Virus record (IMG/VR): IMGVR_UViG_3300045988_142996
Coordinates: 1-64,000 of that record
Length of the DNA stretch: 64,000 nucleotides
Strand: one strand, 5' to 3'
Source: a virus
Numbering within the stretch: position 1 is the first letter of the stretch; the number at the start of each line of letters is the position of its first letter. Position numbers and translations under genes: made by a program. This document shows positions 1,573 to 33,783 of the stretch, one piece after another. The notes below the pieces were generated by a model that did no database searches, was not told the origin of the DNA, and saw only the letters and a program-made list of their open reading frames with translations.

Positions 1573-1934
1573 TACACCTCTTTCCGATCAAACACCGTCT
1601 CCCACCTCTCTTTCTTCATCGGTTTCATCCTGATGGCCCACATCAGCTGCCGGACAGTCACCGTCGGATAAAATCCATTTTGATTTTTCTTTTTGGCGTG
1701 TTCGATAAAATACTCCCGGAATCCTTCGTGCATATAGATTTTGTCCGTCAGCCATGGGTCGATGGGGCCCCAGAAAGTCGCTCGGCTCTTCTCATTGAAT
1801 CTTTGCTGGATGACACACAGGCCTTTCCCATGCTCTGCATACAGCGTACAAGTCTGGTACACCGGGTGATTGCATCGGTAGGTCACGCCGTAGTAATGCG
1901 TCCACTCTTCGGACGGCTCGGTATAATATCTCAT
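1572..1934 (-). CDS. Hypothetical phage protein (120 aa)
   Basis: ORF from the track, co-oriented with its neighbours. The start ATG directly follows a terminator T-run and has no obvious RBS. No family recognised. Confidence 0.55.
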   Translation of the reverse strand: MRYYTEPSEEWTHYYGVTYRCNHPVYQTCTLYAEHGKGLCVIQQRFNEKSRATFWGPIDPWLTDKIYMHEGFREYFIEHAKKKNQNGFYPTVTVRQLMWAIRMKPMKKERWETVFDRKEV

Positions 1935-1968
1935 AAAAAAAAGAGGCCGCAGCTTTCGCCACGACCTC
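1934..1968 (-). terminator. Rho-independent terminator (dispersed hairpin family)
   Basis: Minus strand reads GAGGTCGTGGCGAAAGCTGCGGCCTC followed by T8. Confidence 0.65.
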
Positions 1969-1980
1969 CACGGTTCCTCC

Positions 1981-2388
1981 TTACTTTGTCTTCGTCCAGG
2001 TTCCTCTCAGGATCTCACGGCCTTCTTTCCGTCTCTGACTCAGCGGCATAATACCACCAGCGTCATTCACGCCCTCGAACACATCGTTCCAGATATACAG
2101 CGCCATAGTTCCCACAACGCCTGCGATCGATGCGCCGACCTTCCACCATTCAATCTTGCGAGCCTTCTCCGCATTCTCCACGTCCAATTCCACCTGCCGC
2201 TTCTTCAGCTGCAGCTCGTCCTCTTTCGCTTCCTTTGCTTCCCGGCTCTCACGATCCTTCAGACTGGTCTCCTGCATCTTCGCAATGCTGTTCACCGTTG
2301 CCGTATACTCCTCTGTGCCCGGCTTCATCGTTTTCAACGCATCATATGCCATCTCCAGAGCTTCATTTGCCATTTTTTCATTGTCCAT
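1981..2388 (-). CDS. Hypothetical coiled-coil protein with a C-terminal TM helix (135 aa)
   Basis: RBS GGAG lies upstream of ATGGAC. The sequence is K/E-rich and helical, followed by the hydrophobic stretch WWKVGASIAGVVGTMALYIW. Confidence 0.6.
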   Translation of the reverse strand: MDNEKMANEALEMAYDALKTMKPGTEEYTATVNSIAKMQETSLKDRESREAKEAKEDELQLKKRQVELDVENAEKARKIEWWKVGASIAGVVGTMALYIWNDVFEGVNDAGGIMPLSQRRKEGREILRGTWTKTK

Positions 2389-2425
2389 TTTGATTTCTCC
2401 TTTGCAAAATAAATTCGGAGTTTCC

Positions 2426-2453
2426 TCCGTAAAGCAGCGAGTTATTTTCGCGA
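2426..2453 (-). promoter_or_regulatory. Class-1 promoter-like motif, copy B (variant)
   Basis: Minus strand reads TCGCGAAAATAACTCGCTGCTTTACGGAGG. It overlaps the stop of 2442..2690. Confidence 0.4.
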
Positions 2454-2690
2454 TTTGACCTTCTGGACGCGGAGGATCACATAATCGTTCGTTTCCAAAT
2501 TGTCCGGGGACTCGTCCAGATTCAGGAACAGGTGTGCACCATCGTCCTCTTCACCGGTATAGCCAACGATGATCGTCCCGACGGATTCTCGGCTCAGATC
2601 ACGTCGGATGCCCAGTACAACACCAAGGCAGAACCCCAGCACCACGGCAATTCCCGTAAGGATCCAGATCAGATAGCTCATAAGACACAA
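2442..2690 (-). CDS. Small membrane protein (82 aa, N-terminal TM)
   Basis: The N-terminus LIWILTGIAVVLGFCLGVVLGI is hydrophobic. RBS AAAGGAG lies upstream. Confidence 0.55.
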   Translation of the reverse strand: MCLMSYLIWILTGIAVVLGFCLGVVLGIRRDLSRESVGTIIVGYTGEEDDGAHLFLNLDESPDNLETNDYVILRVQKVKSRK

Positions 2691-2734
2691 CTCCTTTTAA
2701 AAATATAAGTGAATGAATGGCTGACTGCGTGATG

Positions 2735-2765
2735 AAAAAATAAGAGCCGATGTTTCCATCAGCTC
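2735..2765 (-). terminator. Rho-independent terminator
   Basis: Minus strand reads GAGCTGATG-GAAA-CATCGGCTC (9-bp stem, GAAA loop) followed by TTATTTTTT. Confidence 0.7.
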
Positions 2766-2777
2766 CATTTTGAAATG

Positions 2778-4242: not shown

Positions 4243-5472
4243 ATGCTAAAACTCTGTCCAGAGTGTTGTCTACAAGTGAGCGATAAGGCAGCAACTTGTC
4301 CTCATTGTGGTTACCCGCTCGACCAAACACCCGTTCCAGTCCTGCAGCGCCCCGTTCCACAAAAGCGGCGAATGCATCTTCCGAACGGTTTCGGCAGCAT
4401 CACTGAAGTCCGAACGAAAAATCTTCGTAACCCGTTTTATGTCACTGTTCCTGCCGGAAAAACTCCAGAAGGCCGTCCCATTCGTAAGCCGCTCAAGCCC
4501 AAATCATCTTTTAAGACATATAACGAGGCTTATCAAGCACTGGTGGAATATCACCGAAATCCTTATGACCCAGAAACGATCATCAGCTTTCAGGAGCTAT
4601 ATGATCTCTGGTATCAAGAGCGGGAAAAAGCTAATCCCGATAAGACAACGCTTTGCCGCTATCGGAGCCTTTGGCGGTATTCCGCGCCAATCAAAGATAT
4701 TCCAGTACGCAATCTTCGTGTCCACCATTTAAAAGAATGCGTACTTCATGGAACCGCGGTGAATAATGGAGCAACCGTCGAAATTTCGCCAATCACTGGT
4801 TCAAAGCTAAAATTCATGTACAACCAGCTGTTTGATTATGCTGTTGAAAATGAATACGTAGATAAGAACATCGCCCGCATGTTTAATGTCAACTGCGAAT
4901 TTGAAACGCAGCATGAGCACTTCCCTTATACTGATGAAGAGATCAATATTCTCTGGAAAAATGTAGGAATCTGCGACGTTGCTGACCTGATCCTCATTCA
5001 GTGCTATTCTGGCTGGCGGCCGCAGGAGTTAGTCAAGTTAAAAATAGCAGACGTTCATCTTGACAAGCGTTGGATTCAGGGTGGTATGAAAACAAAAAAT
5101 GGCAAAAATCGCCAGGTGCCTATTCATATGAAAATTATGCCGCTCATTCAGCATCGCTATAAGGAAGCGCAGAGTATCGGTAGCGAATATCTTTTTAATC
5201 ATCATTACAAGCGCTGGCCCGACAGGTGGACTAAATACTCCTATGATTACCTTTCCGATTCGTTTATCGAAACGCTCCCCTTGTTGGGCATCAGCCCAGA
5301 GCATCGTGGACATGATGGCCGCGTGCATTTTGTCACGTTGGCCAAGAAAGCGGAGATGGACGAATATGCTCTCAAGCGAATCGTTGGTCATAAAATCGAT
5401 GACCTTACCGAGCGTGTTTACACTAGGCGTACCGTTGAATGGCTCATCAGCGAGCTTGATAAGATTCCCTGA
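4243..5472 (+). CDS. Tyrosine recombinase / phage integrase with an N-terminal zinc ribbon
   Basis: CPECC...CPHCG zinc ribbon. SGWRPQEL (Arg I), RGHDGRVHF, RIVGH...ERVYTRR (catalytic Tyr region). RBS GAAGGAGG at 4230-4237 precedes the ATG at 4243. The track start at 4228 is a TTG inside the RBS. Confidence 0.9.
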   Translation: MLKLCPECCLQVSDKAATCPHCGYPLDQTPVPVLQRPVPQKRRMHLPNGFGSITEVRTKNLRNPFYVTVPAGKTPEGRPIRKPLKPKSSFKTYNEAYQALVEYHRNPYDPETIISFQELYDLWYQEREKANPDKTTLCRYRSLWRYSAPIKDIPVRNLRVHHLKECVLHGTAVNNGATVEISPITGSKLKFMYNQLFDYAVENEYVDKNIARMFNVNCEFETQHEHFPYTDEEINILWKNVGICDVADLILIQCYSGWRPQELVKLKIADVHLDKRWIQGGMKTKNGKNRQVPIHMKIMPLIQHRYKEAQSIGSEYLFNHHYKRWPDRWTKYSYDYLSDSFIETLPLLGISPEHRGHDGRVHFVTLAKKAEMDEYALKRIVGHKIDDLTERVYTRRTVEWLISELDKIP

Positions 5473-6132
5473 TGTTCTAGCACCAATCCAGCACCGGGTC
5501 AAAATATTACAATTCGAGCTACGTTTTCTTCCATATATTTCCATTTATAGTTATGCACTTTTCATTCACGATTTTTCTTTTTTAAAATGCAGAAAGTTCC
5601 AGTCGGTTCGTGCATTTTTGCGTCAAAACGTAAAAAAGAGCCGTCCTCCCGATTCCTCGAGAGAACAGCTCCATGGTATTGGCTTTATAAAAATCAGATA
5701 GAAATGGTGTTGCAGACGTCGATCAGGACGGGGTCGAGGGTCTTGGTCAAAAATCGCCTGTCGTAAAATATCGCAGCAGTTCGTCATATTTTGCACATCT
5801 ATCTATCACCACTCCATTTCCGTTCTATATTTTTATACGTCGATACGCGTTTGCCTGCTTTTCTGCAAAAAAGTTTCTTTTTAATCACCAATGGAGAAAT
5901 GCTGCGGCTCAAAAAATAAAAGTCCCTGCAACTTTCGCTCACAGCTCCCACTCAGAGCCATAAACGATCGCTGCAGGGGCTTTCTTCATATTACCGGTCA
6001 CTCCATTTTGAATTATATAGACAGTTCCTGCCTTCGGTGAGTGCCAGATGAAACTTTTTCAGGCGGCTTTGGAGAAACATTCAGGTTGGATTCGTATACG
6101 CATCCATTCTCCTTTCCCGCCCGGAATCTCAA

Positions 6133-6622: not shown

Positions 6623-7051
6623 TCACCCCTTCCAACGGCTCTTGTCTTTGCGCACATCCACGTGCACCCAGCCGTTCGCACGGCCAAGACCAGCCGGATA
6701 GAGCCCGATGCCGCCACGGTTCACCAGCAGCGTCTCCGCATAGGCCGCCACGTTTTCCGGGCTGATGCCGGTCACGCGGATGTCCGCCGCTTTGCCGTAA
6801 CAGTGCTGGCTGTAGGTCGCACCGCCAACGGCCTTGTTGTGGTTTGCCGTACGGAAGCCGCTCGTAATGGTCAGCGGCTTGTCAAAATGGACCCGGATCT
6901 GCTCCAGAATATCCACCAGTTCCGTGTCGATGAACATAGGGTCGCTTCCATCCTGACACCGGAATTCCCGCACCTTAAAGTGTTCCGAGAGCTTCCGGTT
7001 TCCGTTCTTCAAAACGGAAAATGCTTCAATGCTCATTTTGATTCCTTTCAT
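6623..7051 (-). CDS. Endolysin, peptidase M15 (zinc D-Ala-D-Ala carboxypeptidase / L-Ala-D-Glu peptidase fold)
   Basis: SGFRTANHNKAVGGATYSQHCYGKAADI ... WVHVD match the M15A zinc ligands and motifs. Confidence 0.85.
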   Translation of the reverse strand: MKGIKMSIEAFSVLKNGNRKLSEHFKVREFRCQDGSDPMFIDTELVDILEQIRVHFDKPLTITSGFRTANHNKAVGGATYSQHCYGKAADIRVTGISPENVAAYAETLLVNRGGIGLYPAGLGRANGWVHVDVRKDKSRWKG

Positions 7052-8931
7052 ACGCCGAAACAGACTGCAAAGGCGAGGGTGTTCCGTCCGTTATAGTTTC
7101 CGCGTCCCGTATCTTCGTTGGTACGGCAGAAATATCCATCGTTGCTCGACGCTTTCGAGCGCATCCACTGCGTACAATTGTTGTCGGGGCTATTGGGGTT
7201 AGCGCAATACTTCGAGCCGCCGTTTGCAAAGTATGCGTACTGTCTCTGGTAGCTTGCCTCGTCCGAGTACGAATATCTGGTCGAGCCGTGCATCTCGTAC
7301 TCGCTCAACAGCCACAGATAGTCCGTCGTCTTGTCGATGCCGAAGGTGTTGCGGGTGTACTTCACACAGGGCTTCATCACAGCACGCAGGTCGGCCGGCA
7401 GCGTACCAAGCTGGCTTCTTGCCAGAGGCTCCAGTGGAGTTCCATTGTTGCCGAGGATGGTGCCGCGCATATAGCTCATGTCCCATCCGCCGTCCGTCGC
7501 GTTGTTCATCGGGCCGCCGCTCAGGGTCGCCAGCTTGCCGTTCGGACACTTCAGGATGAAGTGGATGCCTGCCCCGCTCTCGTACCTTGTGTTGTGCTCA
7601 ATGCCGAGGATCGTAGCATTCAGGTCCGTTGAATAATGCGCATCGTCGTAGCAATTCCCCTCCACATGGATCGTCTTGGAATCTCCTGCCTTGAACATCG
7701 ACGCCGCCAGCTTGTTCGAGCTGATGAAGTCAATGGCTTTCCAGCTGAAGTCATTCAGAGTTGGATCGACTTTGGCATCCATTTTGATGGAAATCGTCCC
7801 CTTCACGGTCACTTCTACCTTCACTTCCGAAAGGCTCGTGTATGACGTTCCGGCAGCCGAAACATCCTCCGTCCGGTTCGTTACGACCGCATTGTAGATG
7901 CTCATGCCACTCGTTGCCGTGCCGGTTATCGTCAGAATATCATTTGCCCTTGCACGCTTTGGTGCGCTGTCCAGTGTCACATTGCTAAGCGAATAGATCA
8001 CATCGTACCATTTGCCCTGCACTGCAGATGCCGTTATTTTGATTTTTCCGGTCACAGTCTCCACATGGATGGAAGCCGACAGCTTATCGTCTGCGATGGC
8101 CACGGCGCTTTTCGTAATGTCCACGCCGCCCATCATCACCGTCACGGTCGAAATATCATACTCGTTGTCGGGTATGATTTTCGCCGTATACGAGGACTCC
8201 TCCAGAACCGCTTCATCCAGATTCTCGTTCCGGCAGTTCGCCAGCTCATTCTCCACCTTGCACAAGCCATAATTCTGCACTCGCACAGCGCATTCTGCAA
8301 CCGTGCCGCCGAGTTCTGCCCGTATCGTACAGGCTCCATTTTTCAGCGCCGTGATCCGTCCGTCGTCGCCGATGCTCACAATGCCTCGCTGGGAAGTCGT
8401 CACCTGAAGCTTGCGGTAGAACGTATCGGCCGGCACAATGCCAACCAGCAGCGAGAAGCTCATGCCCTTCTCCAGTGTTACACTCGTCCGGTTCAGAACC
8501 AGCTGCTTCACGGGGCGGTCGATGCGATCCGGCTGCAGGTTGTACTCCAGCGTGATGGTGGAGTTGCCTTTCTGGCTCTTCCAGGTGTTCACCCAGAGCA
8601 GACCCTTGTAGCAGTGCGCAGGGTTGTCCTCCAGCGCCAGCTCTACACGTTTGCCCTGCAGAGCATCCAGAATCGTCGTATAGGCCGTTTCCCAGTTGTC
8701 CCACCAGTCGTTTTCAACGTAGAACTCAATCTTGCCGGTCCGGTTGTCAAAGATGGGCTTGTGGGTCAGGCTCTGGCTGTAGTCCAGACTGCCGCTCCGG
8801 CCGCCCACGGTCACGAACTTTGTGCGCTCGATCGGCGGCGCGATCACCGGACGGCTGGACGGGATCAGGTGCCAGTCGTCGTAGGTGTTGATAAACCGAT
8901 CATCCACGCGGATGACCACACTGTGATACAT
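7048..8931 (-). CDS. Distal-tail-protein (Dit)-like N-terminus, Big_2 Ig domain and a C-terminal DUF6273-like domain (627 aa)
   Basis: The N-terminus YDDWHLIPSSRPVIAPPIERTKFVTVGGRSGSLDYSQ...FDNRTGKIEFYV is Sipho_tail-like. The Big_2 region is LVLNRTSVTLEKGMSFSL...ITALKNGACTIRAELGG. The C-terminus reads CTQWMRSKASSNDGYF...LAFAVCFGV. Confidence 0.6.
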   Translation of the reverse strand: MYHSVVIRVDDRFINTYDDWHLIPSSRPVIAPPIERTKFVTVGGRSGSLDYSQSLTHKPIFDNRTGKIEFYVENDWWDNWETAYTTILDALQGKRVELALEDNPAHCYKGLLWVNTWKSQKGNSTITLEYNLQPDRIDRPVKQLVLNRTSVTLEKGMSFSLLVGIVPADTFYRKLQVTTSQRGIVSIGDDGRITALKNGACTIRAELGGTVAECAVRVQNYGLCKVENELANCRNENLDEAVLEESSYTAKIIPDNEYDISTVTVMMGGVDITKSAVAIADDKLSASIHVETVTGKIKITASAVQGKWYDVIYSLSNVTLDSAPKRARANDILTITGTATSGMSIYNAVVTNRTEDVSAAGTSYTSLSEVKVEVTVKGTISIKMDAKVDPTLNDFSWKAIDFISSNKLAASMFKAGDSKTIHVEGNCYDDAHYSTDLNATILGIEHNTRYESGAGIHFILKCPNGKLATLSGGPMNNATDGGWDMSYMRGTILGNNGTPLEPLARSQLGTLPADLRAVMKPCVKYTRNTFGIDKTTDYLWLLSEYEMHGSTRYSYSDEASYQRQYAYFANGGSKYCANPNSPDNNCTQWMRSKASSNDGYFCRTNEDTGRGNYNGRNTLAFAVCFGV

Positions 8932-8934: not shown

Positions 8935-11058
8935 TCATCCTCCGTTCTTGATGTAACCGATGGCCGATTGGACCGCATTCCAGGCTTTTCCAGCCGTGGT
9001 AGCACCCGCAGCCAGACTGGCCGTGATGTTCTCTGCCGTGTCGCCGAAGGTGAACTTCTTCTGGTCCAGCGCATCCAGCGGGATCTCTTCCTTTGTGCAC
9101 AGCACCCAGTCGTCGATGCCGTGCGGCACACTCCGGATGCGGGTCTTGCGAAGGAATCCCAGCCGGTCCACGTCCACACCGGCGTCCACAAGGTCACCTG
9201 CGTTGATCTTGATGCCACCGGAAAGGCCGCTGTCCTGCTTGTTCAGCTCGGTCTGTGCCGCCTTTTTCAGTGAGTTCGTGTCCGACTTCTTGCCATCTAC
9301 AATGATGCAGCGCTGGCTCAGGCCATACAGCTCAATGGACTTTTCGTTGTTCACGGTCACTTCGATGGGCTTCGTTTTCTCAAATATCCACCAGCCGGTG
9401 GTCGTGTAGCCGTATGCCTTCACCGAATTCACGATGGAATACGCCTTCATGTAGTACGAAAGGTCCAGCAGGTTCGAGCCGAACTCGATGGTCTGCTCCG
9501 TAATATCCGGCACATCGCTCAGATAGTCCAGATAGCGGTAATATACCTTCAGGCCGTTTTCCATTTTGAAAATCTTGCGCAGACGTAAGATCCCGTTGAA
9601 CTTCTCGACCAGACAGGTATTCAGAGCATCCCAGCAGGTGGTATAGCTCGTCTCATCCTTGTCGTCCTTCTTGTCGTCCGGCTTCGTCACGGTCACATTT
9701 CCCTTCAGGAAAACACGTCCTTCCGTGCGGAAACGGCTGTCCGGACAGGTCGTGGCCAGCGTTACCAGCTCATCCACCGTGTACACCTTGTTTTCCACCT
9801 TGCACGGCATGTCTCCCAGGTACGAGAGTTCTCCGTCGCAGTAGATTTCAAGGTTCAGGTCGTAGTCCGGCGTCATCTCGGTCACATACCCGCACCAGAT
9901 CTCCTGTCCGTCCTCTTCCACAGACACGATCGCTTTCTTCAGCTGAAACAGCTTCCGTGCAGGGTTTGTGACGGGCACTTTGAATGAGAAGCTCCCAGGA
10001 TCGTTCTTTTCCAGAATCAGGTCGGGTTCCAGTACGAACCGGTCTTCCGTGTCGGCGGCATCGTGCAGCAGCTCACGCTTGCTCCAGTAATATCCGTTCC
10101 CTTTTCCGGTAATGGTACCAACGAATACACGGTAGCCGGAACTTACACTCTTATAAAAGGTATAAGTCCCAGTCACTTCCGAGCATCCGTCGGTCACTGT
10201 AACGGTCACGGTATGGTTTGCTTCGCCTTCCAGCTGGTCAAAGGCTTCCTTTGTCAGTTCAAAGGTGTACTTCTCGCCGGAATATCCTTCAAAGGTCCGC
10301 CATACGTTCCCATCCACACTCTCGGTCACGGTCATCACATCGCCGTACTTGTCTCGGATGCTGTATGGCAGCTTGAACGGACTCCGCTTTGCGATCACGC
10401 TCTTCATCTCGAAGTAGCTGCTGGTCAACTCAGGCACGCACTTGTCCCGCAGAATACCTTCCACGTCCAGTGTGCAGTCAGCTGAAATGCACAAACATGC
10501 CATGACGCCGCAGCTGTCGCGCATCGAACGGTTATCCAGACTGACATTTCCCTTGGTGTCGAGCGAAAAGTAATAGGCATAGCACTGGTGCGATTCACCA
10601 TCGCTGTCCTCGTACATTGCTTCGACACGTGTCCAGTAAGTGCTTCCCATCCAGTTTTTCCAGATGGCGTAGCGTACCGTCGGTTCAAGGAGCGGCCCGG
10701 AATAACTGCTGCTGTCAGTATTTAGTTTGAAACCAAATTCCCGATAATGCAGCGCAAACACTTTGTGTGCTCCTGCATCTCCGAGATCCGTCGATTCCAC
10801 AAGGTCACGCTGTTCAAGGCTTTGGAGATAGGTACCTTCCAGATAATCCGACAGAGCGCTGCCTGTGTATGTGTAGTCGCCATAGTAACCGGAATCATTT
10901 ATGAACTGTCTTGCAGGAAGTCCACTTTGACGGACCAGCAAGGTTTTTCCGGCACTGCGATAGTTGTGCATCGCCACGATGAAGTTCACTGCCACGCCGC
11001 TTTCCCGCAGCTGGATGATGCTCCCGGGCTCCATATCGCCCACACGTCTCAATGTCAT
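8935..11058 (-). CDS. Tail-associated lysin / baseplate hub (Tal, prophage-tail-type) with an N-terminal extension
   Basis: LILEKNDPGSFSFKVPVTNPARKLFQLKKAIVSVEEDGQEIWCGYV... is typical of siphophage Tal N-domains. The start was set at MTLRRVG, 5 nt after the TMP stop. The ORF stays open up to 11106. Confidence 0.6.
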   Translation of the reverse strand: MTLRRVGDMEPGSIIQLRESGVAVNFIVAMHNYRSAGKTLLVRQSGLPARQFINDSGYYGDYTYTGSALSDYLEGTYLQSLEQRDLVESTDLGDAGAHKVFALHYREFGFKLNTDSSSYSGPLLEPTVRYAIWKNWMGSTYWTRVEAMYEDSDGESHQCYAYYFSLDTKGNVSLDNRSMRDSCGVMACLCISADCTLDVEGILRDKCVPELTSSYFEMKSVIAKRSPFKLPYSIRDKYGDVMTVTESVDGNVWRTFEGYSGEKYTFELTKEAFDQLEGEANHTVTVTVTDGCSEVTGTYTFYKSVSSGYRVFVGTITGKGNGYYWSKRELLHDAADTEDRFVLEPDLILEKNDPGSFSFKVPVTNPARKLFQLKKAIVSVEEDGQEIWCGYVTEMTPDYDLNLEIYCDGELSYLGDMPCKVENKVYTVDELVTLATTCPDSRFRTEGRVFLKGNVTVTKPDDKKDDKDETSYTTCWDALNTCLVEKFNGILRLRKIFKMENGLKVYYRYLDYLSDVPDITEQTIEFGSNLLDLSYYMKAYSIVNSVKAYGYTTTGWWIFEKTKPIEVTVNNEKSIELYGLSQRCIIVDGKKSDTNSLKKAAQTELNKQDSGLSGGIKINAGDLVDAGVDVDRLGFLRKTRIRSVPHGIDDWVLCTKEEIPLDALDQKKFTFGDTAENITASLAAGATTAGKAWNAVQSAIGYIKNGG

Positions 11059-11062: not shown

Positions 11063-14000
11063 TCACCTTGCCCTTCTTGCGGCTCTTGCGCCGAGCCCTG
11101 CATCAATCCACCCGATGGTGGTTTTGCCGTCCACTACCACGCTCATGCCGTGGATACTGTCCGCCACGCCGTCCATCCGTCCGCCCAGTGCGTTCACCGC
11201 GTTCAACAGGTCGGCATTGGACTGGGCTTTCACTCCATTTTGAAGTTCTGCCGCAGCATCCACCTGAGCCGCCAGACGTTTCGTTGTGCCGCCGTCCAGA
11301 CTGACATTGTCAAAGGCCCGGTTGATGATATCGGTGCTCTCGTCCACGTCGGTCAGGTCCACTACCGGGCTGATGGTGGGCGTGTACTCGTATTCATCAT
11401 CTGTCACCCGCTTGATGGCACCAACCGCAGCGATCGCAATATTCGTAGCATCGTCGGTCATGTCCTTGATGGCGTCGTCCACGGTGTCCTTGCCGTCGGT
11501 AATGCCGTCCGCAAAGTCCTTGTCAAGGTCAGAACCGGCGTCCTTTGCCGCGTCGGACTGCTTTTTATCCTTTGCATGCTTGATGGCAATGGCCGCAATG
11601 CCGCCCAGCAGCGCCAAAATGATGCCTCCCGCCAGAATAAAGGGCCAGATTTCCGGCAGCAGCCCGATCAGACTGCTGAATGCCCCGCCAATGGTTCCAA
11701 CCACGCCGGTTGCCACTTCAGAGATTCCGCCTGCTCCAGCCAGTAATCCGGTGATCTCGCCGCCTGCGTTCTGCACGATGCCTACGATCTGCCCAAAGCC
11801 CTGTTCCAATGCAGGCAGTGCTTTGTCAAAGAGCTGCCCGACGCCTTCCAGCATCTTCTTGCCCTCGTTGGTGCCCATAAAGTCCAGCGCCGCCGTCACA
11901 GCGGACACTGCCGCACCGGCCCAGTCTCCCTGCAGGGCCGAGACGATAGCTGAGGTGAACTCAGTTCCGATCTCAATGCCCTCGTCGCTGAAGGCCGCGC
12001 CAAATGCATTGGACAGGCCGGTCTTCACGTTTTCCGGCAGGTTCTGCGATGCCTTGTTCCATGCCTTGGTCAGACCCTCGCTCAGGGGTTTCCAGTTCTT
12101 CTGCACGGCATAGGCAAGTTTCACCACCATGGATTTGCCTTCATCTTCCAGATTAAAGGCCTCGGCCAGGTTGGATGCAAAGCCCAGGAAGGCGCTCTGG
12201 GAGGAGAGCAGGTTGTCCTGTGCGGCTTCTTTCTCCTCCCGGGTTGCATTCTCTGAGTTGAGGATCTCCTGATACTTCGCCGTCTCCTTGAGCTGGAAGT
12301 TCATGTTCTTCAGGGCCGTCACCACGCCCAGAATGGACGTCGTCGTGCCCTGGAACTGCGCCTTCTTTGCCTGCTCGCTGTCTTTGCCGTATTCCTCCAC
12401 GGCAGACTTGTAGGCATCCTCCCGCTGAGAGAGGTCGCCGTCGCTGTACACCGTGTTCAGGATGTCCATGCGGCTCTGCATCCGGCTCTGGGCAGTCGAA
12501 ATGGCATCGATCTGTGCGTCGATCAGGTTCAGTTCCTGCTGTGCCAGATCATTTTGAAGTTCCTGTGCCTCGGTGCGGGCGTCCAGCAGATCGTTCCAGG
12601 CTTCCATGGTGCGCATGTCTTCTTCGCCATACTGAGCCTTCAGGGCGTCATACTGCTCCTGCGCTTTGGCCAGCTTTTTCTCCTTGATGGCCAGTTCCGC
12701 CGTCATGTACTCGGTTTCCCGGTTGATCTTGTCGGTTTGGGTGGCTGTTTTGTCGTTCTGTGCCGTCCACAGGCCATATTCCTTTTCCAGCGTGTCGAGG
12801 TCGGTGTCGTAGCGCTTCGTCACGTCGTCAAAGAGGCCCACATACTGCTCTGCCTTCAGGTCGGCCAGACTGGTCTTTTCCTCCAGCAGGTCGAGGTAGG
12901 CCTCTTTGGTCTCGGTCTTATCCTTGCCCCAGCGCTTGGCCAGCTCGTCGTACTTCGCCTGTGCAATGGCCACCCGGTCGGTCTGGTGCTGGATGTCCGC
13001 TGCGGCATTCTCGGTCTTCTTGGCCAGCAGCTCGTCCACCGAGGCACTGTACTGGTTTTCCTTCAGCCACAGGTCGTACTCTTCGTCTACCGTGTCCTTC
13101 AGGGTCTTGTTGGCCGCCAGCTGGGTCTTGTACTTTTCCGTGATCTGTTCGGCTACGGTCTTCTGCTTGGTGGAAGATTTGGTTTTCTTCTTGCCCGTAC
13201 CGGTTCCGCCGGAGCCATCAGTGTTTCCAGAATCCGCATCAGGATTTTCCCGGTTTCCGTACAGCGACGTCCAGTCGAAGCCATCTGCTTTCTTTTTTGC
13301 AGGAATTGCGTTCAAACCGGAATCGCGAAGGTCCATCTGTAACTGGCGTCGTTCCTGCGGAGTCAGAGACGGATCATTTAGTGCATTGCTTAGCTCCTCC
13401 TGGAGACCTTCTTTATAGGCAGCACCAGTTCTCCTGCCAACATCTCTTGCTTCATCCTCAACATCTGATGCCTTATTTTCAAGTCCTTCGATTACGCCAC
13501 CATCGTAATACTCACCATTTTCGATTCCGTCATCTGCATTAGAATGGATACCAACTTCATCTCGGAAAGCATTGTCCATACTCCGAGCGAGAATGGACAT
13601 CGCCGTTTCTGCGGCAGGGGTTCCATTTTGAATTCCCTCAACAAGACCGCTGACAATGTAACCTGCATTTTCGATGGCAAGTCTAGCGGGAGAAGCAATC
13701 CCCCAATAGTCATTGAATGCATCATTTTGGGAATCAGCCAGCTCCTCAACAGCATCGACTGCTTTATCTCCTTCTTTTTCGATGCCTTTGGCGTAGCCTT
13801 CAGCGACATACTCGCCACTGCTTTGAGGATCAACACCATGTTCACTCTTGAATGCACTCTGAATCTTTTCGCCAATCCACTTGCCAAGCGCTCCGAATTT
13901 CGACCCGATATAATTGAATATTGAGCCAATAACAGAATCAATTGTTTCCAAAATCTTAGGAGTACAATTGATTAGCACATCGCACAAAGCATAAATCAGC

Positions 14001-26951: not shown

Positions 26952-28697
26952 TCACTCAAACGCATCCCGGTTATTCTTATAAGCTACATACGCATCCATC
27001 ATAGCGGCAACCGCATCGATCTTCTGATCATACCTCTGTTTCAGAAGCTTGCGGTTGCCGTTTGTGTCTTCCAGGGTAATGCAGTTGCCCATAGCAAATT
27101 GCATCAGTTGCTCGTCAAACAGCAGTTTTCGCTGTTCGCTCAGCTTCTTCAGCTCGCCCAGCGGCACGCTCTCTGTCTTTGCGCCCTGGATCACCTTCTC
27201 GATGGCATACTCGCCGTTCTCTCTGGCCCATCGTTCCACAAAGTCCTTTGCGTTATAGGGGTCGTAGCCGAAAGACCGTACGTCGTACCCGCTGTTCTCG
27301 ATAAAGTGGTCAAGGTCGTCGTACACTTCCATCATGTCCAGCACGGTGCCTTCCAGCACCACAAGTGTTCCCTCCCGCATGAACTCGTCATACTTCTGCC
27401 GCATTGCAATGGGCAGCTTCGAGAGGGTGTAGCTCGTAATGTAGTCCCTCGTCTTCACGCCGAAATATCCGTGCTCCATCGGGAACAGGAAGGTAAACGC
27501 GCAAAAGTCGTCGCCCTGGCTGAGGTCTGCGCCCATGCTGCACGCCATCTGCCAGAAGTCCCGGTGCCGGTGCGGCAGGGTCTCCTCGTAGGGGAAGAAG
27601 TAGGTGTAACCCTCCATCGGGATGCCGAAGCGCTTTGCCAGGATGTCATTCCGGCTGGCAGGAGCCTTCTCGGCGCGTTCAACGTCCAGCTGGTAGGCTT
27701 CGTAGCTCACTGTGGCTCCCAGGTTCGGGTTCGCCTTCACCCACATGCTGGGGTCATTTACCTCGTCGATGCTGTCCAGCTTGTAGTACCAGATGGACAC
27801 ATGCGGGTTCACATAGTCGCCCTTCAGGATGCTCATCAATTCCATTTTGATGTCGTCACCGCAGCCGTTGCGCACCGTGCCCTCGCTGCTGGTGGCTACG
27901 ATCAGGTAATCCTCCACCTTGCAGCTACCCTGCTCGATAGCGCCAATGGGGTCTTCCCGGATGGGGCACGAGAGCCATTCATCCACTGTGGCCACCTTGT
28001 CTCTCCGTCCCTGCAGCTTGTCGATGCTCATGGGGCGGATTTCCAAAAGGCTGTTGGTCAGGAAGTTCTCGATGCCCTTCTTCGTGCTGGCCAGCTTCAC
28101 CCGCGCCGACTGGGAGCCGGTAGTGTTCTGCATGCTGCCTTCGGTCATAAAACGGTACAGCGGACCGCGGCTCCGCGCCAGTGCCGTGCGGATGGGGCTC
28201 AGCACCTCTTCCGCCTGCTTCATGGTGGGAGCCGTCGTGATCTGTTGCGTCGTGTGTCCGTCCACTGCAAGGAAGTATTGCTGGATGCAGCTGTCGTAGA
28301 TGCTCTTTGCCGCGCCTCGTGCCACGATCAGATACTGCTTGCGGACAAGGCGGTGCTTGATGCGCTTCTGGATGTACCTGCCGCCATGGCCGTCGGGGTT
28401 GGGCTTGTAGATGGTGCGTTCTTCAAAGTAGTACCATCCGAAGATTTCCTCCGCCCATAGCTTGAAGGTGTCCAGCAACTTCATGTCACTGCCGTCGGTC
28501 AGGGTCAGTTCCCGTTCACAGAACTTCACAAAGCCATCCATGGCCTTGTCGTCGTAGTAGATACCCGGATTTGCGATAAGATCATCGATCCGGTTCATCT
28601 CCATGGAGATTTCCCTGCAGACAGGAATTTCGCCTCGCAGCACGGCCTCCCGGAAACGGCCGTAATATTTTGGCGTAGCCGTGTTCGAGAGTGCCAT
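26952..28697 (-). CDS. Terminase large subunit
   Basis: A 581-aa protein with the Terminase_1-like layout: an ATPase region (YLIVARGAAKSIYDS) and a C-terminal nuclease region. It is the only terminase-sized ATPase in the genome. Confidence 0.8.
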   Translation of the reverse strand: MALSNTATPKYYGRFREAVLRGEIPVCREISMEMNRIDDLIANPGIYYDDKAMDGFVKFCERELTLTDGSDMKLLDTFKLWAEEIFGWYYFEERTIYKPNPDGHGGRYIQKRIKHRLVRKQYLIVARGAAKSIYDSCIQQYFLAVDGHTTQQITTAPTMKQAEEVLSPIRTALARSRGPLYRFMTEGSMQNTTGSQSARVKLASTKKGIENFLTNSLLEIRPMSIDKLQGRRDKVATVDEWLSCPIREDPIGAIEQGSCKVEDYLIVATSSEGTVRNGCGDDIKMELMSILKGDYVNPHVSIWYYKLDSIDEVNDPSMWVKANPNLGATVSYEAYQLDVERAEKAPASRNDILAKRFGIPMEGYTYFFPYEETLPHRHRDFWQMACSMGADLSQGDDFCAFTFLFPMEHGYFGVKTRDYITSYTLSKLPIAMRQKYDEFMREGTLVVLEGTVLDMMEVYDDLDHFIENSGYDVRSFGYDPYNAKDFVERWARENGEYAIEKVIQGAKTESVPLGELKKLSEQRKLLFDEQLMQFAMGNCITLEDTNGNRKLLKQRYDQKIDAVAAMMDAYVAYKNNRDAFE

Positions 28698-31337: not shown

Positions 31338-31341
31338 GTCG

Positions 31342-32658
31342 TCACCCCTTTTGCTTAATATCCGGTTCCAACAAGACAACGGCGATCGTAAGCTCCTTTG
31401 TCGGTTTTGTTTTCGACCAGAACTTAAGTGCGCCATCCAACGCCTGACAGGTCCCATATAGGCCTGCTGCGATCGCAGATGGGACATCGTCCGGCTCGAC
31501 AGTTGCGATCGGAACCAGAAACGCCGTGCATTCCGCTTTTTCGAGCGTACAGGAATATGCGGCATCCGAATCACTTTTGCTCCACCTCGTCACGGGGATC
31601 TTCACAAGTTGTGAACCGATAACCCCTCCGTTATAGGAGGTTGTGATGCTGTCCAGCAGTTTGACTACGTTCGTTTCGCTGGTCTTTGCAGCATTTGCGC
31701 TGGTGGCGGCTCCCGACTCACTCGCCTTTGCGGCGGTTGCGCTAGATGCAGCCTCGGCGGCACTGCTCTGAGATGCCGTGGCACTGGAATTTGCTTTTGT
31801 CGCACTGCCAGCGGCATTTGTCTCGCTGACTTTAGCCGCATCGGCACTGGTAGCCGACTCTGTTGCCGAGTTCTTTGCGTTCTTCTCTGACGACTCCGCA
31901 GCGGTTGCGGCTTCGGTAGCAGCATTGGCGCTGGTAGCAGCATTTGACTCGCTAACTTTAGCGGCTTGCTCACTACTCGAAGCGGCAGTTTGACTGACCT
32001 TTGCCGCACGGGCACTGGTTGCCGCTGCTTCTGCGCTTGTGCCGGACGAATCTGCGTAGGATTTTGCGTTCCGCTCGGCATTGGCGGCTTCGGCAGCACT
32101 TCGTGAAGCAGCCGCTGCTGCATCTTCTGCCCCGGTCACCAGCGTACCGGAATAGATCATCAGGTCGTTCTTCAGATGCGTCAGATAATCCACAATCTCC
32201 GGTATATCCCCACCTTCGTAGGGTTCCAAACCTTCAAGCACAGTTCCTGCGCCGAGGGTGGTGTGGTAAGCCTTCTGGACGACCCCGTCGACATCCGTCA
32301 TAAAGCAGTTCACCACGAACAGAACGGTTCCTTTAACCATCGTAGCATCTGCGGCCACGGTCCAGATAAAGCAGAAGCTGTCAGTCTCCACGGTCTTTTC
32401 CGTTACCGTAAAATAATTGATGTCGCCGTCCGCATTCTGGTAGTTGATCCTGATGCAAAATTCGGACAAGTCAGACCCATGATAAAAGCGATTCATCCGG
32501 AACCGCACGCGGTTCACATCCTTGTCTCCTTCTACGCCCAGAACAACGCCTCGTTCAGGAACGGTGATGATACGCAAATGCTCGTCAATGATGAACGAAA
32601 GCTCGTCATCGCATCCTGCCTGATTTGCTGATTCCAGCAGCTCGTCAATACTCGCCAT
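31342..32658 (-). CDS. Fibre / BppU-like protein with a long Ala/Ser/Thr-rich repeat stalk (438 aa)
   Basis: The N-terminal ~150 aa is paralogous to 32673..33128. This is followed by about 170 aa of ...SAEAAATSARAAKVSQTAASSSEQAAKVSESNAATSANAA... repeats. Confidence 0.6.
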   Translation of the reverse strand: MASIDELLESANQAGCDDELSFIIDEHLRIITVPERGVVLGVEGDKDVNRVRFRMNRFYHGSDLSEFCIRINYQNADGDINYFTVTEKTVETDSFCFIWTVAADATMVKGTVLFVVNCFMTDVDGVVQKAYHTTLGAGTVLEGLEPYEGGDIPEIVDYLTHLKNDLMIYSGTLVTGAEDAAAAASRSAAEAANAERNAKSYADSSGTSAEAAATSARAAKVSQTAASSSEQAAKVSESNAATSANAATEAATAAESSEKNAKNSATESATSADAAKVSETNAAGSATKANSSATASQSSAAEAASSATAAKASESGAATSANAAKTSETNVVKLLDSITTSYNGGVIGSQLVKIPVTRWSKSDSDAAYSCTLEKAECTAFLVPIATVEPDDVPSAIAAGLYGTCQALDGALKFWSKTKPTKELTIAVVLLEPDIKQKG

Positions 32659-32672
32659 TCGTTCACTTCCTT

Positions 32673-33128
32673 TCAAAGATTATCGTTTACAAGCCCTTCC
32701 AGACTCACACCATTTCCGATAGTGGTCCCAAATGCCTGTTCGATTTTTCCGTTTGCTCCTCTTTTCACGCAATAGACAGTGAATTGCACAGTGCCTTTGT
32801 AGGAGACCACGTCTTTCCCCACGATCCACGTGAAGCTGATTGCATCATCAGTGACCGTTTTGTCCACCGCATCAAAGCCGCCACGCTCATTCTCGGCATT
32901 ATCGTAAAGAACTTGGATCTCAAAGTCCGAAAGATCGGTTCCACGATAATACCGTGACATCCGGAACCGGACGAGATTCACGTCTTTGTCTCCCTCTACG
33001 CCCAGAACAACGCCTCGTTCGGGAACTGAGATCAGTCGAAGGTCTTTGTCGATCACAAAGCACAGTTCTTCTTCATCCCGATTCGGCTCGACCATGGCTG
33101 CCAGAACTTCTTCCACACTCGCCATCAC
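32673..33128 (-). CDS. BppU-N-like protein (151 aa), paralog of the N-terminus of 31342..32658
   Basis: ISVPERGVVLGVEGDKDVNLVRFRMSRYYRGTDLSDF compares with ITVPERGVVLGVEGDKDVNRVRFRMNRFYHGSDLSEF. Confidence 0.6.
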   Translation of the reverse strand: MMASVEEVLAAMVEPNRDEEELCFVIDKDLRLISVPERGVVLGVEGDKDVNLVRFRMSRYYRGTDLSDFEIQVLYDNAENERGGFDAVDKTVTDDAISFTWIVGKDVVSYKGTVQFTVYCVKRGANGKIEQAFGTTIGNGVSLEGLVNDNL

Positions 33129-33427
33129 GCCACCTGCTCAACCAACACCGGATTTGTCTTCATCCGGGTCTTGCCGGTCTGACCGATCAGTTGTACTTTA
33201 AAGCTTCTGCCGTCGGTCACATCATCGGGCACAGTGCACTCAAAGTCGGCATTCAGCGCAACAGCGTATTCGTCATTGAACACCATGACTTTCTTTGCAT
33301 AGAGCCAATCATTGTCTCTCAATTGCACATGGCAGCACAGATACCCTTTGCTTCCGGCCATGATGCCGGAAAAATCGCCCTGCTTGGAAAGTTTCTGTCC
33401 TTCCACTGCAAACATCAGTTTCCGCAT
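33125..33427 (-). CDS. Hypothetical structural-module protein (100 aa)
   Basis: ORF from the track. Its ends overlap both neighbours. No family recognised. Confidence 0.5.
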   Translation of the reverse strand: MRKLMFAVEGQKLSKQGDFSGIMAGSKGYLCCHVQLRDNDWLYAKKVMVFNDEYAVALNADFECTVPDDVTDGRSFKVQLIGQTGKTRMKTNPVLVEQVA

Positions 33428-33768
33428 CTAACTTCCTCCTTATCGCATTCGGTGTACAGCCGCCATTCCAGCTCGCTGATCATGCTCTTGGTCGCATCCA
33501 TCACGCTGCTGGACTGAGGAGGATCGAACAGCAGACGAACTTTCATTGCCACGTAGCTTTTCACAGCTTCGATGTCAGCTTTGTTCTTACAGAAATCACT
33601 CCAGGTCGCCGTGGCGTCAACGATACCAAAACCCTCCTGCGGTCCTACGCCCATTTGACGAAGGATCATCAGCACGCTGTTGATGTGCATGATAAGGTCG
33701 GTATCAAAGGCCGTGTACTCCTCGGTCAGCCCGAGCAGCTTCTTCACTGAGGTCAGGATACTGTCCAT
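33415..33768 (-). CDS. Head-tail connector-like protein (gp6 / Gp19-Gp15-Gp42 family-like), 117 aa
   Basis: SVKKLLGLTEEYTAFDTDLIMHINSVLMILRQMGV matches the vK..LGI....FD.dLi..In pattern. Confidence 0.5.
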   Translation of the reverse strand: MDSILTSVKKLLGLTEEYTAFDTDLIMHINSVLMILRQMGVGPQEGFGIVDATATWSDFCKNKADIEAVKSYVAMKVRLLFDPPQSSSVMDATKSMISELEWRLYTECDKEEVRCGN

Positions 33769-33783
33769 TTTGATTTATCTCCT

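Follow-up and report, generated by a model that had tools for sequence, protein, structure and literature searches.

The late genes of this gut phage are marked on one strand by a short word, TCAAAATGG, and so are those of hundreds of distantly related phages encoding the same unusual phage RNA polymerase (RNAP). The reading we favour, at about even confidence, is that the motif is a compact late promoter or initiator of this two-barrel polymerase.

Enrichment, strand and module specificity of the word

The analysed stretch of 64,000 nucleotides (the window) consisted of a genome of 62,122 bp, circularly permuted within the window, and 1,878 bp of wrap-around; the copy at 63796-63805 is therefore a duplicate of that at 1674-1683. 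The 10-mer TCAAAATGGA occurred 14 times on the coding strand of the genome and once on the opposite strand, a coding-strand bias of 14:1. The expectation was approximately 0.28 for both strands together with dinucleotide shuffles and 0.27 for the coding strand with an order-3 Markov model. The original prediction had put it too low, at 0.06 per strand; enrichment was still about 50-fold, and none of the shuffles reached the observed count. All 15 of the plus-strand CCATTTTGA positions it listed were present, and 14 of them extended to TCAAAATGGA on the minus strand. The opposite-strand copy was indeed single and was located at 6882..6891 (plus strand) instead of 6892-6901, antisense in the gene 6623..7036, which occupies the endolysin position by synteny. 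One-mismatch variants numbered 9 vs approximately 7 by chance, so the word is sharply defined. A logo of 56 independent contexts gave the full motif as a compact 13-mer, AAWTCAAAATGGA; neither a further spaced element nor a -35 element or TG extension accompanied it.

The word kept to the late module and pointed in the same direction as the genes. The early half was filled by a second, complementary mark, TGATATTT, on the same strand as the late word. This early mark (T-GATATT-T) is -10-like. Early-region words differed between lineages, and the late word was common to them. In the window and in FP_oengus, 3-4 copies were also located past the integrase, in the accessory region. A probable cos region (35370..35450, minus strand), recognised by its similarity to sequences conserved at the right and left ends of linear relatives, sits between the RNAP end of the genome and the late module.

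The site classes originally described (start codons, intergenic, in-frame Met and out-of-frame QNG) held, and all of the following copies are on the minus strand. Three copies coincided with start codons. The first past the RNAP gene, approximately 2 kb downstream of it, was 33764..33773, with its ATG (33768-33766) starting the connector gene 33415..33768 (a match to Pfam Phage_connect_2); the others started the portal gene 22762..24030 (24026..24035) and the gene 1981..2388 (2384..2393). AGGAG was present upstream of the first and the last of these. In four copies the ATG was an in-frame Met codon: 27841..27850, at codon 285 (D-D-I-K-M-E-L) of the large terminase gene 26952..28697 and the most deeply conserved copy of all; 17909..17918, within 17719..18102, an HK97 gp10-like neck gene by synteny; 9560..9569, within the tail gene 8935..11058; and 7778..7787, within the tail gene 7048..8931. 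A 9-mer only, TCAAAATGGT at 44713..44721 (codon 11 of the early gene 44420..44746), joined this class as the sole coding-strand copy in the early half. Three copies were out of frame: 1674..1683 within the small ORF 1572..1733, 13622..13631 (I-Q-N-G) within the tape measure gene 11063..17722, and 11234..11243 (L-Q-N-G-V-K) near the 3' end of the latter, with the next tail gene 180 nt downstream. Four copies were intergenic. Gene 20240..20566 starts 18 nt downstream of copy 20580..20589 (TTCAAAATGGAGTGAAAG), whose GGAG could be its Shine-Dalgarno (SD) sequence, and gene 18776..19207 starts 22 nt downstream of copy 19225..19234. Past the lysis genes, 6002..6011 is directly preceded by TATAAT and reads ATG-GAG-TGA, with the next ATG 14 nt on. 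At 2764..2773, GGAGC begins a terminator-like hairpin with a T-run after it.

Conservation, selection on placement and host independence

The motif and the two-barrel RNAP gene co-occurred across phages of two bacterial phyla. The original prediction had proposed a comparison with related phages, and the motif was present in relatives, partly at homologous positions. The copies at 20580, 17909, 9560, 6002 and 2764 were homologous to FP_oengus 44213, 47004, 55410, 58115 and 2441, respectively, and the copy at 11234 had homologues at FP_oengus 53631 and in the tape measure protein (TMP) gene of P092 at 13593, making this TMP LQNG copy common to all three phages. The 9-mer marked the late module in relatives from Lactococcus, Streptomyces, Arthrobacter and Gordonia and from oral and gut metagenomes. 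Close relatives (n = 80) gave 79 vs 0 for the 10-mer, with no word upstream of the RNAP gene and the first copies 1-2 kb past it. In relatives with an RNAP of 47-63% identity and a GC content of 35-57%, the values were 84 vs 2 downstream of the RNAP gene, with approximately 1 expected. An exception was the lineage L121/L122/L124, with 8-11 copies upstream of that gene. Unbiased word discovery returned the word as the top late-region word of saliva phage D_HF4_2 and yielded TCAAAATG from the late region of Lactococcus P092; Scap1, Circum and Kenosha had 3-4 copies apiece vs approximately 0.1 expected. Two Faecalibacterium phages, which share the host and do not encode the polymerase, contained no copies. 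Since the word was absent from these and present across hosts, it is not host-related.

The codon-aware shuffle suggested with the original prediction left the enrichment standing: synonymous-codon shuffles kept on average 1.4 of the 7 intragenic copies, and all 7 in 0 of 1000 shuffles. At the terminase copy site, 86 of 94 loci read ATCAAAATGGA, and ATC-AAA was found in 26 of 29 dereplicated lineages vs 4.9 expected, while flanking codons varied. By this sequence comparison, the terminase-internal copy is held by synonymous-site selection. There is next to no chance that composition, codon usage or conserved peptides (IKME, LQNG) gave rise to the word as a side effect, or that the phage carries it as a host-genome word akin to Chi, uptake or KOPS sequences. 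Several copies do coincide with the conserved peptides DxIKMEL in the large terminase (TerL) and LQNG(V/L/I)K in TMP, and control phages show a low coding-strand background of the bare 8-mer CAAAATGG. However, chance was excluded by shuffles and Markov models, most copies were lost with the proteins held fixed, synonymous constraint was found within the word only, half of all copies sit either at a start codon or outside coding sequence, and the word is missing from the two same-host phages yet conserved across the hosts of two phyla. This explanation was rejected on the codon shuffle, the same-host phages and the TerL synonymous-site test.

Placement was gene-specific. The motif ATG was the capsid start codon in 17 of 23 lineages and the portal start codon in 15 of 25 dereplicated lineages; it was the start of the HNH gene in 0 of 34. 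In 41% or more of 124 independent copies, the ATG probably served as a start codon. Approximately 20% of copies were out of frame within ORFs yet kept across lineages. It is unlikely, though by no means far-fetched, that the word acts in mRNA (UCAAAAUGG), as a translation-initiation operator or enhancer or as a processing site of late messages. Its reader would then be a conserved phage RNA-binding protein or nuclease that raises, represses or times capsid, portal and late translation, and internal in-frame copies, such as that in TerL, would be internal initiation sites. T4 RegA operators, which overlap AUGs, are a known analogue. The gene-specific start-codon placement at capsid and portal, the restriction to the sense strand, a position fixed relative to the ATG and variable relative to the SD, and GGNGA approximately 9-10 nt upstream of the in-frame ATG in TerL are all consistent with it. 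The conserved out-of-frame copies (TMP LQNG) and non-coding copies far from any start argue against it, no RNA-binding regulator or ribonuclease was recognised among the approximately 40 proteins scanned, and a conspicuous lineage-defining gene beside the late module would be left unused.

The two-barrel polymerase as candidate reader

That gene (35751..38513, minus strand) encodes the proposed reader, a single-subunit two-barrel RNA polymerase of 920 aa, identified with Pfam, alignments, an AlphaFold2 (AF2) model and Foldseek (bioRxiv 10.1101/842583). It is of the QDE-1/YonO-like type with helix-turn-helix (HTH) domains and is located just upstream of the late genes in the window and in relatives. 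The DFDGD loop at residues 528-532 was invariant in alignments. A sigma-70 region-4-like HTH was found at approximately residues 104-133 and a C-terminal HTH at 891-919. The AF2 model (pLDDT 84) matched QDE-1, RDR2 and Thermus phage P74 gp62. Among the approximately 40 proteins scanned, no RinA-, ArpU- or sigma-like protein and no other sigma-like or activator-like late factor was recognised. The late promoter originally proposed, for a phage RNAP-like or RinA-like factor, is thus favoured in its RNAP form, on account of the late confinement and gene orientation of the word, its co-occurrence with the RNAP and its absence from RNAP-less phages of the same host; a RinA-like factor was not found. 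Of the other two roles suggested with the original prediction, strand-specific nicking and binding by a packaging or regulatory protein, neither is favoured over it.

We infer three things: that this polymerase reads the word, that the word works at the DNA level, and the sites of transcription initiation. Early genes would be transcribed by host RNAP via lineage-specific TATAAT-type promoters, with the phage polymerase gene as the final gene of this host-transcribed block. The polymerase would bind the 13-bp word, perhaps via its HTH modules, and initiate in or beside the A-tract. Copies in the terminase gene, at the portal start and at the capsid start would add transcripts stepwise, giving an output of capsid > portal > terminase, and distal genes would be re-supplied by the copies near the end of the tape measure gene and by those that lie between one tail gene and the next. 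A word over a start codon would produce a leaderless or very short-leader transcript, and where a G follows (GGAG), the word itself may provide the SD sequence.

Several observations stand against the promoter reading. About half of the copies are in ORFs, the first five late-side genes past cos have no upstream copy, a terminator-like hairpin directly follows copy 2764, and copies occur upstream of the RNAP gene in L121/L122/L124 and in the accessory region in the window and FP_oengus. The start-codon copies keep a normal SD upstream, so leaderless translation is not needed by those genes. The word's co-occurrence with the RNAP cannot be told apart from one with other parts of the conserved core, e.g., TerL.

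The core CAAAAT+GG could also pass for a weak sigma-A -10 element. It is distinctly improbable that the word (T-CAAAAT-GG) is a -10-like element used without a -35 by host sigma-A RNAP with the help of a phage late factor, in the manner of T4 late promoters (TATAAATA) with gp55, and that the two-barrel polymerase serves another promoter class. CAAAAT has both key -10 positions (A-11, T-7), with GG at -6/-5, the word lines up with TATAAT+GAGAA in the early-class promoters of relatives, and the early mark is -10-like as well. Sigma-A -10 recognition is universal and could account for conservation across phyla. However, the invariant C at -12 and T at -13 are not sigma-A-like, both a -35 element and a TG extension are absent, and same-host phages that use host RNAP do not have the word. 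Were transcription to start approximately 7 nt downstream, a copy placed over the start codon of the capsid or portal gene could not express that gene, although this placement is preferred. No sigma-like or gp55-like factor was found among the approximately 40 proteins scanned.

Still less probable, and in our view very unlikely, is a DNA signal outside transcription: strand-specific virion nick sites, as in T5 and Pseudomonas phage tf, or recognition by a nuclease or primase-polymerase, with the HNH endonuclease, a Cas4/RecB-like exonuclease and the primase-polymerase as candidate readers. The word is exact, strand-specific, present in and outside genes at approximately 14 copies per genome and under nucleotide-level selection, and the phage encodes a conserved HNH endonuclease and nucleases; the tf nick consensus has a similar copy number. 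This would leave unexplained why the word is restricted to the late module and why it prefers the capsid and portal start codons and is absent from that of HNH, and a different word occupies the same strand in the early half. Sequence comparison found no resemblance between the word and the cos site, and an HNH gene adjoining the terminase is the usual cos-cutting helper. The T5 and tf nick consensus, like the word, consists of exact short one-strand words in approximately 14 copies in and outside genes; we know of no reported link of those nick sites to temporal gene class or start codons.

Comparison with known systems

Returning to the phage polymerase as reader, the Thermus phage P23-45 encodes two two-barrel RNAPs, gp96 (vRNAP), with an AT-rich motif, and gp64 (nvRNAP), with a GC-rich motif; each comes with a short motif of its own, whose occurrence follows that of the polymerase (PMC10770324). 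Both P23-45 and this phage encode a two-barrel polymerase not of the T7 type, which is supported by the P74 gp62 structural match, and both have approximately 7-14 copies of a short, phage-specific, gene-oriented motif that tracks the polymerase among relatives. The P23-45 motifs lie upstream of mapped pre-early and early starts, whereas the word here marks late genes, as judged from sequence. Unlike those motifs, the word is only 9-13 nt long, often on start codons or in ORFs, and invariant across two phyla. YonO of the Bacillus prophage SPbeta transcribes late genes from a promoter that is still unknown, with a single mapped start for one long operon (PMC5467207). YonO and the enzyme of this phage are both single-chain two-barrel RNAPs of temperate Firmicute phages, with their genes just ahead of the late (structural and lysis) genes; no sequence similarity was detectable between them, and the enzyme here has added HTH domains, unlike YonO.

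The T7 group likewise has approximately 15 near-identical, co-oriented sites, its polymerase is made after host-driven early transcription, and its initially transcribed GGGAGA is SD-like, as is ATGGAG here. T7 promoters, however, are 23 bp long and lie almost exclusively between genes, and the polymerase that reads them is unrelated (Pol I-like). The poxvirus late initiator TAAAT(G) and the yeast pGKL UCS promoters are very short and read by virus-encoded two-barrel polymerases, and, as here, an A-run is joined straight to the ATG start codon. The poxvirus element requires an A/T-rich upstream core at a fixed spacing, and its mRNAs carry poly(A) heads made by slippage; such an upstream element was not seen here, and the poxvirus and pGKL hosts are eukaryotic. 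At T4 late promoters (TATAAATA), gp55/gp33 act with host core RNAP as the reader; these promoters are late-class elements of 8-9 bp without a -35, in dozens of copies and often within upstream ORFs, all of which resembles the word; their sequences are unrelated, and they depend on the host core enzyme with a sigma-like phage protein, none of which was found here. The SAS of Cluster K mycobacteriophages are asymmetric repeated 13-mers at the translation starts of some genes, a property shared with the word in actinophages. They lie upstream of the start codon, include the ribosome-binding site and are intergenic only, whereas the word includes the ATG, also occurs in ORFs and is module-specific.

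The motif is ancient and supercluster-wide. In its full form AAWTCAAAATGGA, it would be a cis-acting signal of the late module, read by a phage-encoded factor that extends across the supercluster.

Distribution of the late word in the window

The window comprised a 62,122-bp genome plus 1,878 bp repeating its start. Positions 1–1878 and 62123–64000 were identical, so that features of the first 1.9 kb appear twice; the assembly is either circularly closed or terminally redundant. A gene map built by codon-usage scoring placed nearly all genes on the minus strand. The nearest described phage was the Faecalibacterium phage FP_oengus (a fifth of the late region aligned at approximately 76% nucleotide identity), and gene order was assigned by synteny with its annotation. 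A gap following the RNA polymerase operon (35140–35460, minus strand) is the probable cos because it matched both physical ends of linear relatives, a similarity that puts the site at about 35.37–35.45 kb. The gap also contained a G/C hairpin (GGGAGGGGGTCCC...CCCCCTCCC), a CCCCGGGGG hairpin and a long-range inverted repeat (TTGTAAGGGCTTATGAGA ... TCTCATAAGCCCTTACAA) with arms approximately 110 nt apart. On the virion map that follows from this position, cos is succeeded by the late genes (35.0 to 6.0 kb, minus strand), the integrase on the opposite strand (4243..5472), small accessory genes with an IS110 transposase, the early and replication genes (62 to 40 kb) followed by nucleases, and finally the gene for a 920-aa polymerase (38513..35751), one small gene and cos again. 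The IS110-family transposase (135–1310, plus strand, equal to 62257–63432; DEDD_Tnp_IS110 and Transposase_20) had inserted, on the opposite strand, where the accessory genes meet the early region. Two plus-strand genes at 25330–26951 split the minus-strand late module between terminase and portal; their products (351 and 177 aa) had no informative Pfam match. A strong terminator-like hairpin was present on the minus strand at 24582–24551.

The 10-mer TCAAAATGGA, originally predicted to be strand-specific, occurred at 14 distinct sites on the minus strand, which is the coding strand, and at one site on the plus strand. The single opposite-strand copy had been foreseen, but its position proved to be 6882–6891 and not 6892–6901. 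The 9-mer TCAAAATGG, hereafter the late word, had an additional copy at 44713, and a match at 63796 was the wrap copy of 1674. Enrichment over chance was upheld, although the expectation of about 0.06 copies per strand had been too low: dinucleotide shuffles gave approximately 0.28 and an order-3 Markov model 0.27. Variants with one mismatch were at chance frequency, not above it. The word also withstood the codon-aware shuffle on which the original prediction had staked it. This shuffle, which holds every protein and the codon usage of each gene fixed, kept on average 1.4 of the 7 intragenic copies and all seven in 0 of 1000 trials. Most intragenic copies were thereby removed, so selection acts on the nucleotide sequence itself. 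An origin of the word in chance or composition was ruled out by this shuffle together with the dinucleotide shuffles and the Markov model.

As had been claimed, copies fell both at gene starts or in non-coding DNA and, in differing frames, inside genes. Seven of the 14 were on start codons (three) or intergenic (four), whereas only 12% of the genome is non-coding; the intragenic copies comprised four with in-frame Met codons and three out of frame. Among 124 independent copies, approximately 56% were on a start codon or in non-coding DNA and approximately 44% were internal. An operator or processing site acting at the mRNA level in late translation-initiation regions remains a rival reading, since a start or in-frame AUG forms part of half of the copies; the conserved out-of-frame copies speak against it. 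A general role in supplying a Shine–Dalgarno sequence (GGAG) to a downstream start was rejected, as this was true for only 3 of the 124 independent copies.

Over 56 independent contexts, the full motif was A-A-W-T-C-A-A-A-A-T-G-G-A, and no second, spaced element was found across them. A −10-like element for host sigma-A plus a phage factor also remains among the explanations, in that CAAAAT followed by GG retains A−11, T−7 and G−5. However, C−12 was invariant, and CAAAAT shared 4 of 6 positions with TATAAT, having a fixed C in place of the expected T. Nothing was conserved upstream of −4 in the 56 contexts, in conflict with a sigma-70/sigma-A arrangement of −35 and −10 elements at 16–18 nt. 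Furthermore, transcription starting downstream would be of no use to capsid or portal, and scans of approximately 40 window proteins revealed no such phage factor.

Conservation and placement in related phages

FP_oengus carried 17 copies of the 9-mer on the coding strand and one on the other strand. Conservation at homologous positions in a related phage was borne out for six FP_oengus late-module copies, the others being lineage-specific; totals for FP_oengus and the window were alike (13 against 11). The sole opposite-strand copy (window 6882–6891, plus strand; FP_oengus 57101, minus strand) was antisense within the gene at the endolysin position in both phages, at positions that were not homologous. 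In close relatives, opposite-strand 9-mers were found at two to three conserved places, where the 10-mer never occurred. An antisense role in the lysis cassette is conceivable.

In 80 viral contigs with a polymerase 74–99% identical to that of the window, the 10-mer had 79 coding-strand copies and none on the opposite strand. Close relatives had no copy in the 10 kb upstream of the polymerase gene or within it, and the word started 1–2 kb downstream. The stretches downstream of the polymerase gene in 51 metagenomic loci (polymerase 47–63% identical, GC 35–57%), 258 kb in all, held 84 coding-strand copies of the 9-mer and two on the opposite strand, where chance would give about one on each. 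With strand counts of 14:1, 79:0 and 84:2, the word had the same orientation as the genes and was restricted to one module, except in one lineage (L121) and in the accessory region beyond the integrase. In L121 and its companions L122 and L124 (polymerase 52–53% identical), 8–11 TCAAAATGG copies preceded the polymerase gene, the majority overlapping start codons in the form SD-TCAAA-ATG-G. One of them abutted an early-type CGCGAAAAA...TTTATGG unit, and the terminase-internal copy was lost (ATT-AAG).

Unbiased word discovery in the saliva phage D_HF4_2 returned TCAAAATGG as the top late-region word (6 vs 0), and in Lactococcus phage P092 TCAAAATG was found 11 vs 0 times in the late region; the early-region words of both were wholly unlike those of the window. 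Streptomyces phage Scap1, Arthrobacter phage Circum and Gordonia phage Kenosha had 3–4 late-module 9-mers each (approximately 0.1 expected). The word was thus found in all polymerase-bearing lineages examined, from five host genera and metagenomes. FP_Taranis and FP_Lagaffe, which infect the same host species and are without the polymerase, had zero copies on both strands; the bare 8-mer CAAAATGG was rare in them, mostly internal and never preceded by T. Being present across hosts and missing from polymerase-less phages of the same host, the word is a property of the phage lineage rather than of the host. A host-derived word of the Chi, KOPS/SRS or DNA uptake type was rejected on the zero count in these controls and the presence in Lactococcus, Streptomyces, Arthrobacter and Gordonia phages. 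Integrase-anchored loci, taken as a route into the host chromosome, offered one usable locus, the far side of which appeared to be phage DNA and not host. The polymerase was always accompanied by the rest of a conserved core, so the word co-occurs with that core as much as with the polymerase. The identity of the large terminase (TerL) was bimodal, 57–78% in polymerase-bearing phages and otherwise ≤30%, which precludes a comparison with polymerase-less TerL. The TerL of the window (26952–28697, minus strand) was 72–78% identical in protein to the terminases of Streptomyces, Arthrobacter and Gordonia phages, far better conserved than the polymerase in these phages (about 42%).

In TerL, the peptide D-x-I-K-M-E-L was invariant. 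The codons of D, x, E and L varied freely; Ile was ATC and Lys was AAA in 26 of 29 dereplicated lineages, with 4.9 expected from each phage's own terminase codon usage. The constraint also held in the Streptomyces phage, where AAA makes up just 10% of terminase Lys codons. Regulatory words inside phage structural genes can therefore outlast very deep divergence. Counted in dereplicated lineages, the ATG of the motif was the start codon of the capsid/protease gene in 17 of 23 and of the portal gene in 15 of 25, as opposed to 1 of 23 for the terminase, 3 of 35 for the connector, 0 of 34 for the HNH endonuclease and 1 of 17 for the first gene after cos. Placement is therefore gene-specific. It favours genes with products needed in the largest amounts, a pattern not expected if the word merely sat where it was cheapest. 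Strand-specific nick sites, or another nuclease or primase signal, remain as a further alternative. The exactness and strand bias are compatible with such a signal (T5/tf-type consensus), but the module restriction and the gene-specific placement on start codons are at odds with it. A cos or pac signal was rejected, as the located cos region was unrelated to the motif. The late-word finding is real, statistically overwhelming and evolutionarily deep.

The early word and early promoters

The early side was marked by a second word, (T)GATATT(T), located on the minus strand mostly at 35–62 kb plus 3.4 kb (e.g., 35363, 38030, 48916, 54323 and 61374). GATATTT had a strand ratio of 43:1 in the window, and TGATATTT one of 691:22 in close relatives. 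The early word ran through the early side and stopped roughly 1 kb beyond the polymerase gene, and it was mutually exclusive in position with TCAAAATGG. Both words are of the form T-[G/C]-A-W-A-W-T. Intragenic copies of the early word were all in the frame xxT-GAT-ATT-Txx, and the word as a whole had no flanking information. In many distant gut lineages the early word was found on the early side only (171:20 vs 19:12), and it was not present in Scap1 and D_HF4_2. A replication-strand signal was rejected, as the late word never flips strand and shares its strand with the different word of the early half.

Early-class promoters of four lineages shared one architecture, consisting of a CGC(G/A)AAAA-like box, approximately 12–13 nt and a TATAAT-like hexamer. 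In the window, ten near-identical promoter-like units ((G)ACGCGAAAA-N12-yTTTATGRAAG) were located at ACGCGAAA sites on the minus strand (starts at 61327, 61051, 59400, 59171, 58044, 48217, 44798, 3341, 2920 and 1564), usually directly after terminator-like T-run hairpins. The early regions of D_HF4_2, Scap1 and FP_oengus had a CGCRAAAA box, then TATAAT/TATAGT, then GAGAA; P092 differed in having a contiguous TTTTACATACCCTATAATG unit, and a tRNA-like sequence followed two of its early promoters. An early-type promoter preceded each of three DUF6353 paralogues (56021–56944, 58053–58808 and 59407–60156, minus strand), and the same three were present in FP_oengus. A Spo0A_C-like DNA-binding protein (Pfam E 1e-9) was encoded at 40759–41094 (minus strand). 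Adjoining its gene were approximately nine GCCCACTT repeats in both orientations (40003–40300), a possible origin or operator. Given the likeness between the Spo0A 0A-box core TGNCGAA and the CGCGAA box of the early promoters, the protein might be their activator.

The candidate reader and the proposed function

In the 920-aa protein (35751..38513, minus strand), the catalytic DxDGD metal-binding loop (D528-F-D-G-D532) was invariant in 5 and in 37 diverse homologues. Pfam detected helix-turn-helix (HTH) domains, one sigma-70 region-4-like near residue 110 and a second at the C-terminus. A PDB sequence-profile search returned HTH modules only, and the fold is therefore shown by modelling. The AF2 model (pLDDT 84.3, pTM 0.73) matched QDE-1 (E 1.6e-8), RDR2 and Thermus phage P74 gp62 (E 5e-7; P74-26 non-virion RNA polymerase) in Foldseek and, more weakly, Pol II, ASFV RNAP, AR9 nvRNAP and the crAss-like virion polymerase gp66; TM-scores were low over the full length (about 0.3), the match being to the core only. 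The model thus points to a two-barrel polymerase fold of the QDE-1/YonO-like single-chain branch, with DNA-templated, promoter-specific RNA synthesis as the predicted activity. Homologues at 36–44% identity were found in 251 sequenced phages (hosts Arthrobacter, Gordonia, Streptomyces, Lactococcus, Curtobacterium, Microbacterium and Rhodococcus) and in gut and oral viral genomes, and the polymerase was also present in thousands of variants of Faecalibacterium prophages; clustered at 50% identity, it falls into 825 groups. It was the last gene before the late module in every genome inspected. Scans of approximately 40 other window proteins revealed no sigma factor, RinA/ArpU-type activator, nickase or methyltransferase, and gave only the HNH endonuclease by the packaging genes and the Spo0A_C-like protein by the iteron cluster. 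For the FP_oengus protein, RdRP-like motifs, HTH domains and the distribution have been reported, with promoters not addressed (bioRxiv 10.1101/842583). We found no report of polymerase activity in the literature on this lineage, nor of the literal motif, YonO-type promoters, or transcriptomes or transcription start sites of related phages.

No word in the whole group other than TCAAAATGG is at once conserved, late-specific and oriented, and the simplest model is that it serves as the late promoter or initiator of the phage polymerase. Its action as DNA, its recognition by the polymerase and the point at which RNA would begin are all inferred. The two-barrel polymerases of P23-45 use short private motifs, and motif and polymerase co-occur (PMC10770324); similarly, motif presence tracks polymerase presence here. 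YonO, the only distant relative of this polymerase to have been studied, transcribes the SPbeta late genes, its promoter being still undefined (PMC5467207). The preference for the capsid and portal start codons is easier to reconcile with RNA synthesis starting at the AUG or immediately ahead of it than with a start several bases further on. The late initiator of poxviruses is TAAATG, and the proposed initiation at the AUG resembles this start-codon-containing element. The mycobacteriophage SAS is a 13-bp repeat a few bases upstream of start codons, RBS included, and intergenic only. The late word, unlike SAS, includes the ATG, lies downstream of the Shine–Dalgarno sequence at variable distance and is intragenic in approximately 44% of copies. 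A phage tRNA with anticodon CAT (48700–48778, minus strand) had a paired G1-C72 and no GGG/CCC anticodon stem, features that rule out an initiator tRNA. It is thus not linked to AUG-centred initiation, and by its sequence would be of the elongator Met or Ile2 type.

Under the promoter model, the host enzyme would transcribe the early genes, which is plausible since the early promoters fit host sigma-A, perhaps with an activator, and the polymerase gene would close the early block. Copies in the terminase and at the portal and capsid starts would then add transcripts stepwise and grade gene dosage, and the tail genes would be re-supplied from those within and beyond the long tape measure gene. 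Several observations fit less well: the accessory region beyond the integrase holds 3–4 copies in the window and FP_oengus, one copy leads directly into a terminator-like hairpin, the first five genes after cos are without a preceding copy, and one lineage has 8–11 copies upstream of the polymerase gene. The late word is best classed as a candidate late promoter, hitherto undescribed, for a family of two-barrel phage RNA polymerases that is itself uncharacterised. Its unusual features are the very small size, the overlap with the start codon and the upkeep inside coding sequence. A more far-reaching proposal, which we regard as rather unlikely, is a minimal initiator-type promoter that includes the start codon, is read by the polymerase and yields late mRNAs for capsid, portal and other genes that start at the AUG or a few bases ahead of it and are leaderless or slippage-headed, forming with the early word a two-word, strand-specific temporal code that runs through coding sequences and is conserved in phages from Actinobacteria to Firmicutes.

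The promoter and activity of this RdRP/QDE-1-like phage polymerase, the signature gene of a very large phage group, are undescribed. A candidate recognition word of 9–13 nt, invariant across the group, makes the polymerase–promoter question directly testable, with AAWTCAAAATGGA as the form named for polymerase templates. If confirmed, the late word would explain graded late gene dosage in polymerase-bearing phages, help to annotate prophages of a key commensal that are abundant in the gut, and offer an orthogonal transcription unit of very small size that works in both Firmicutes and Actinobacteria.
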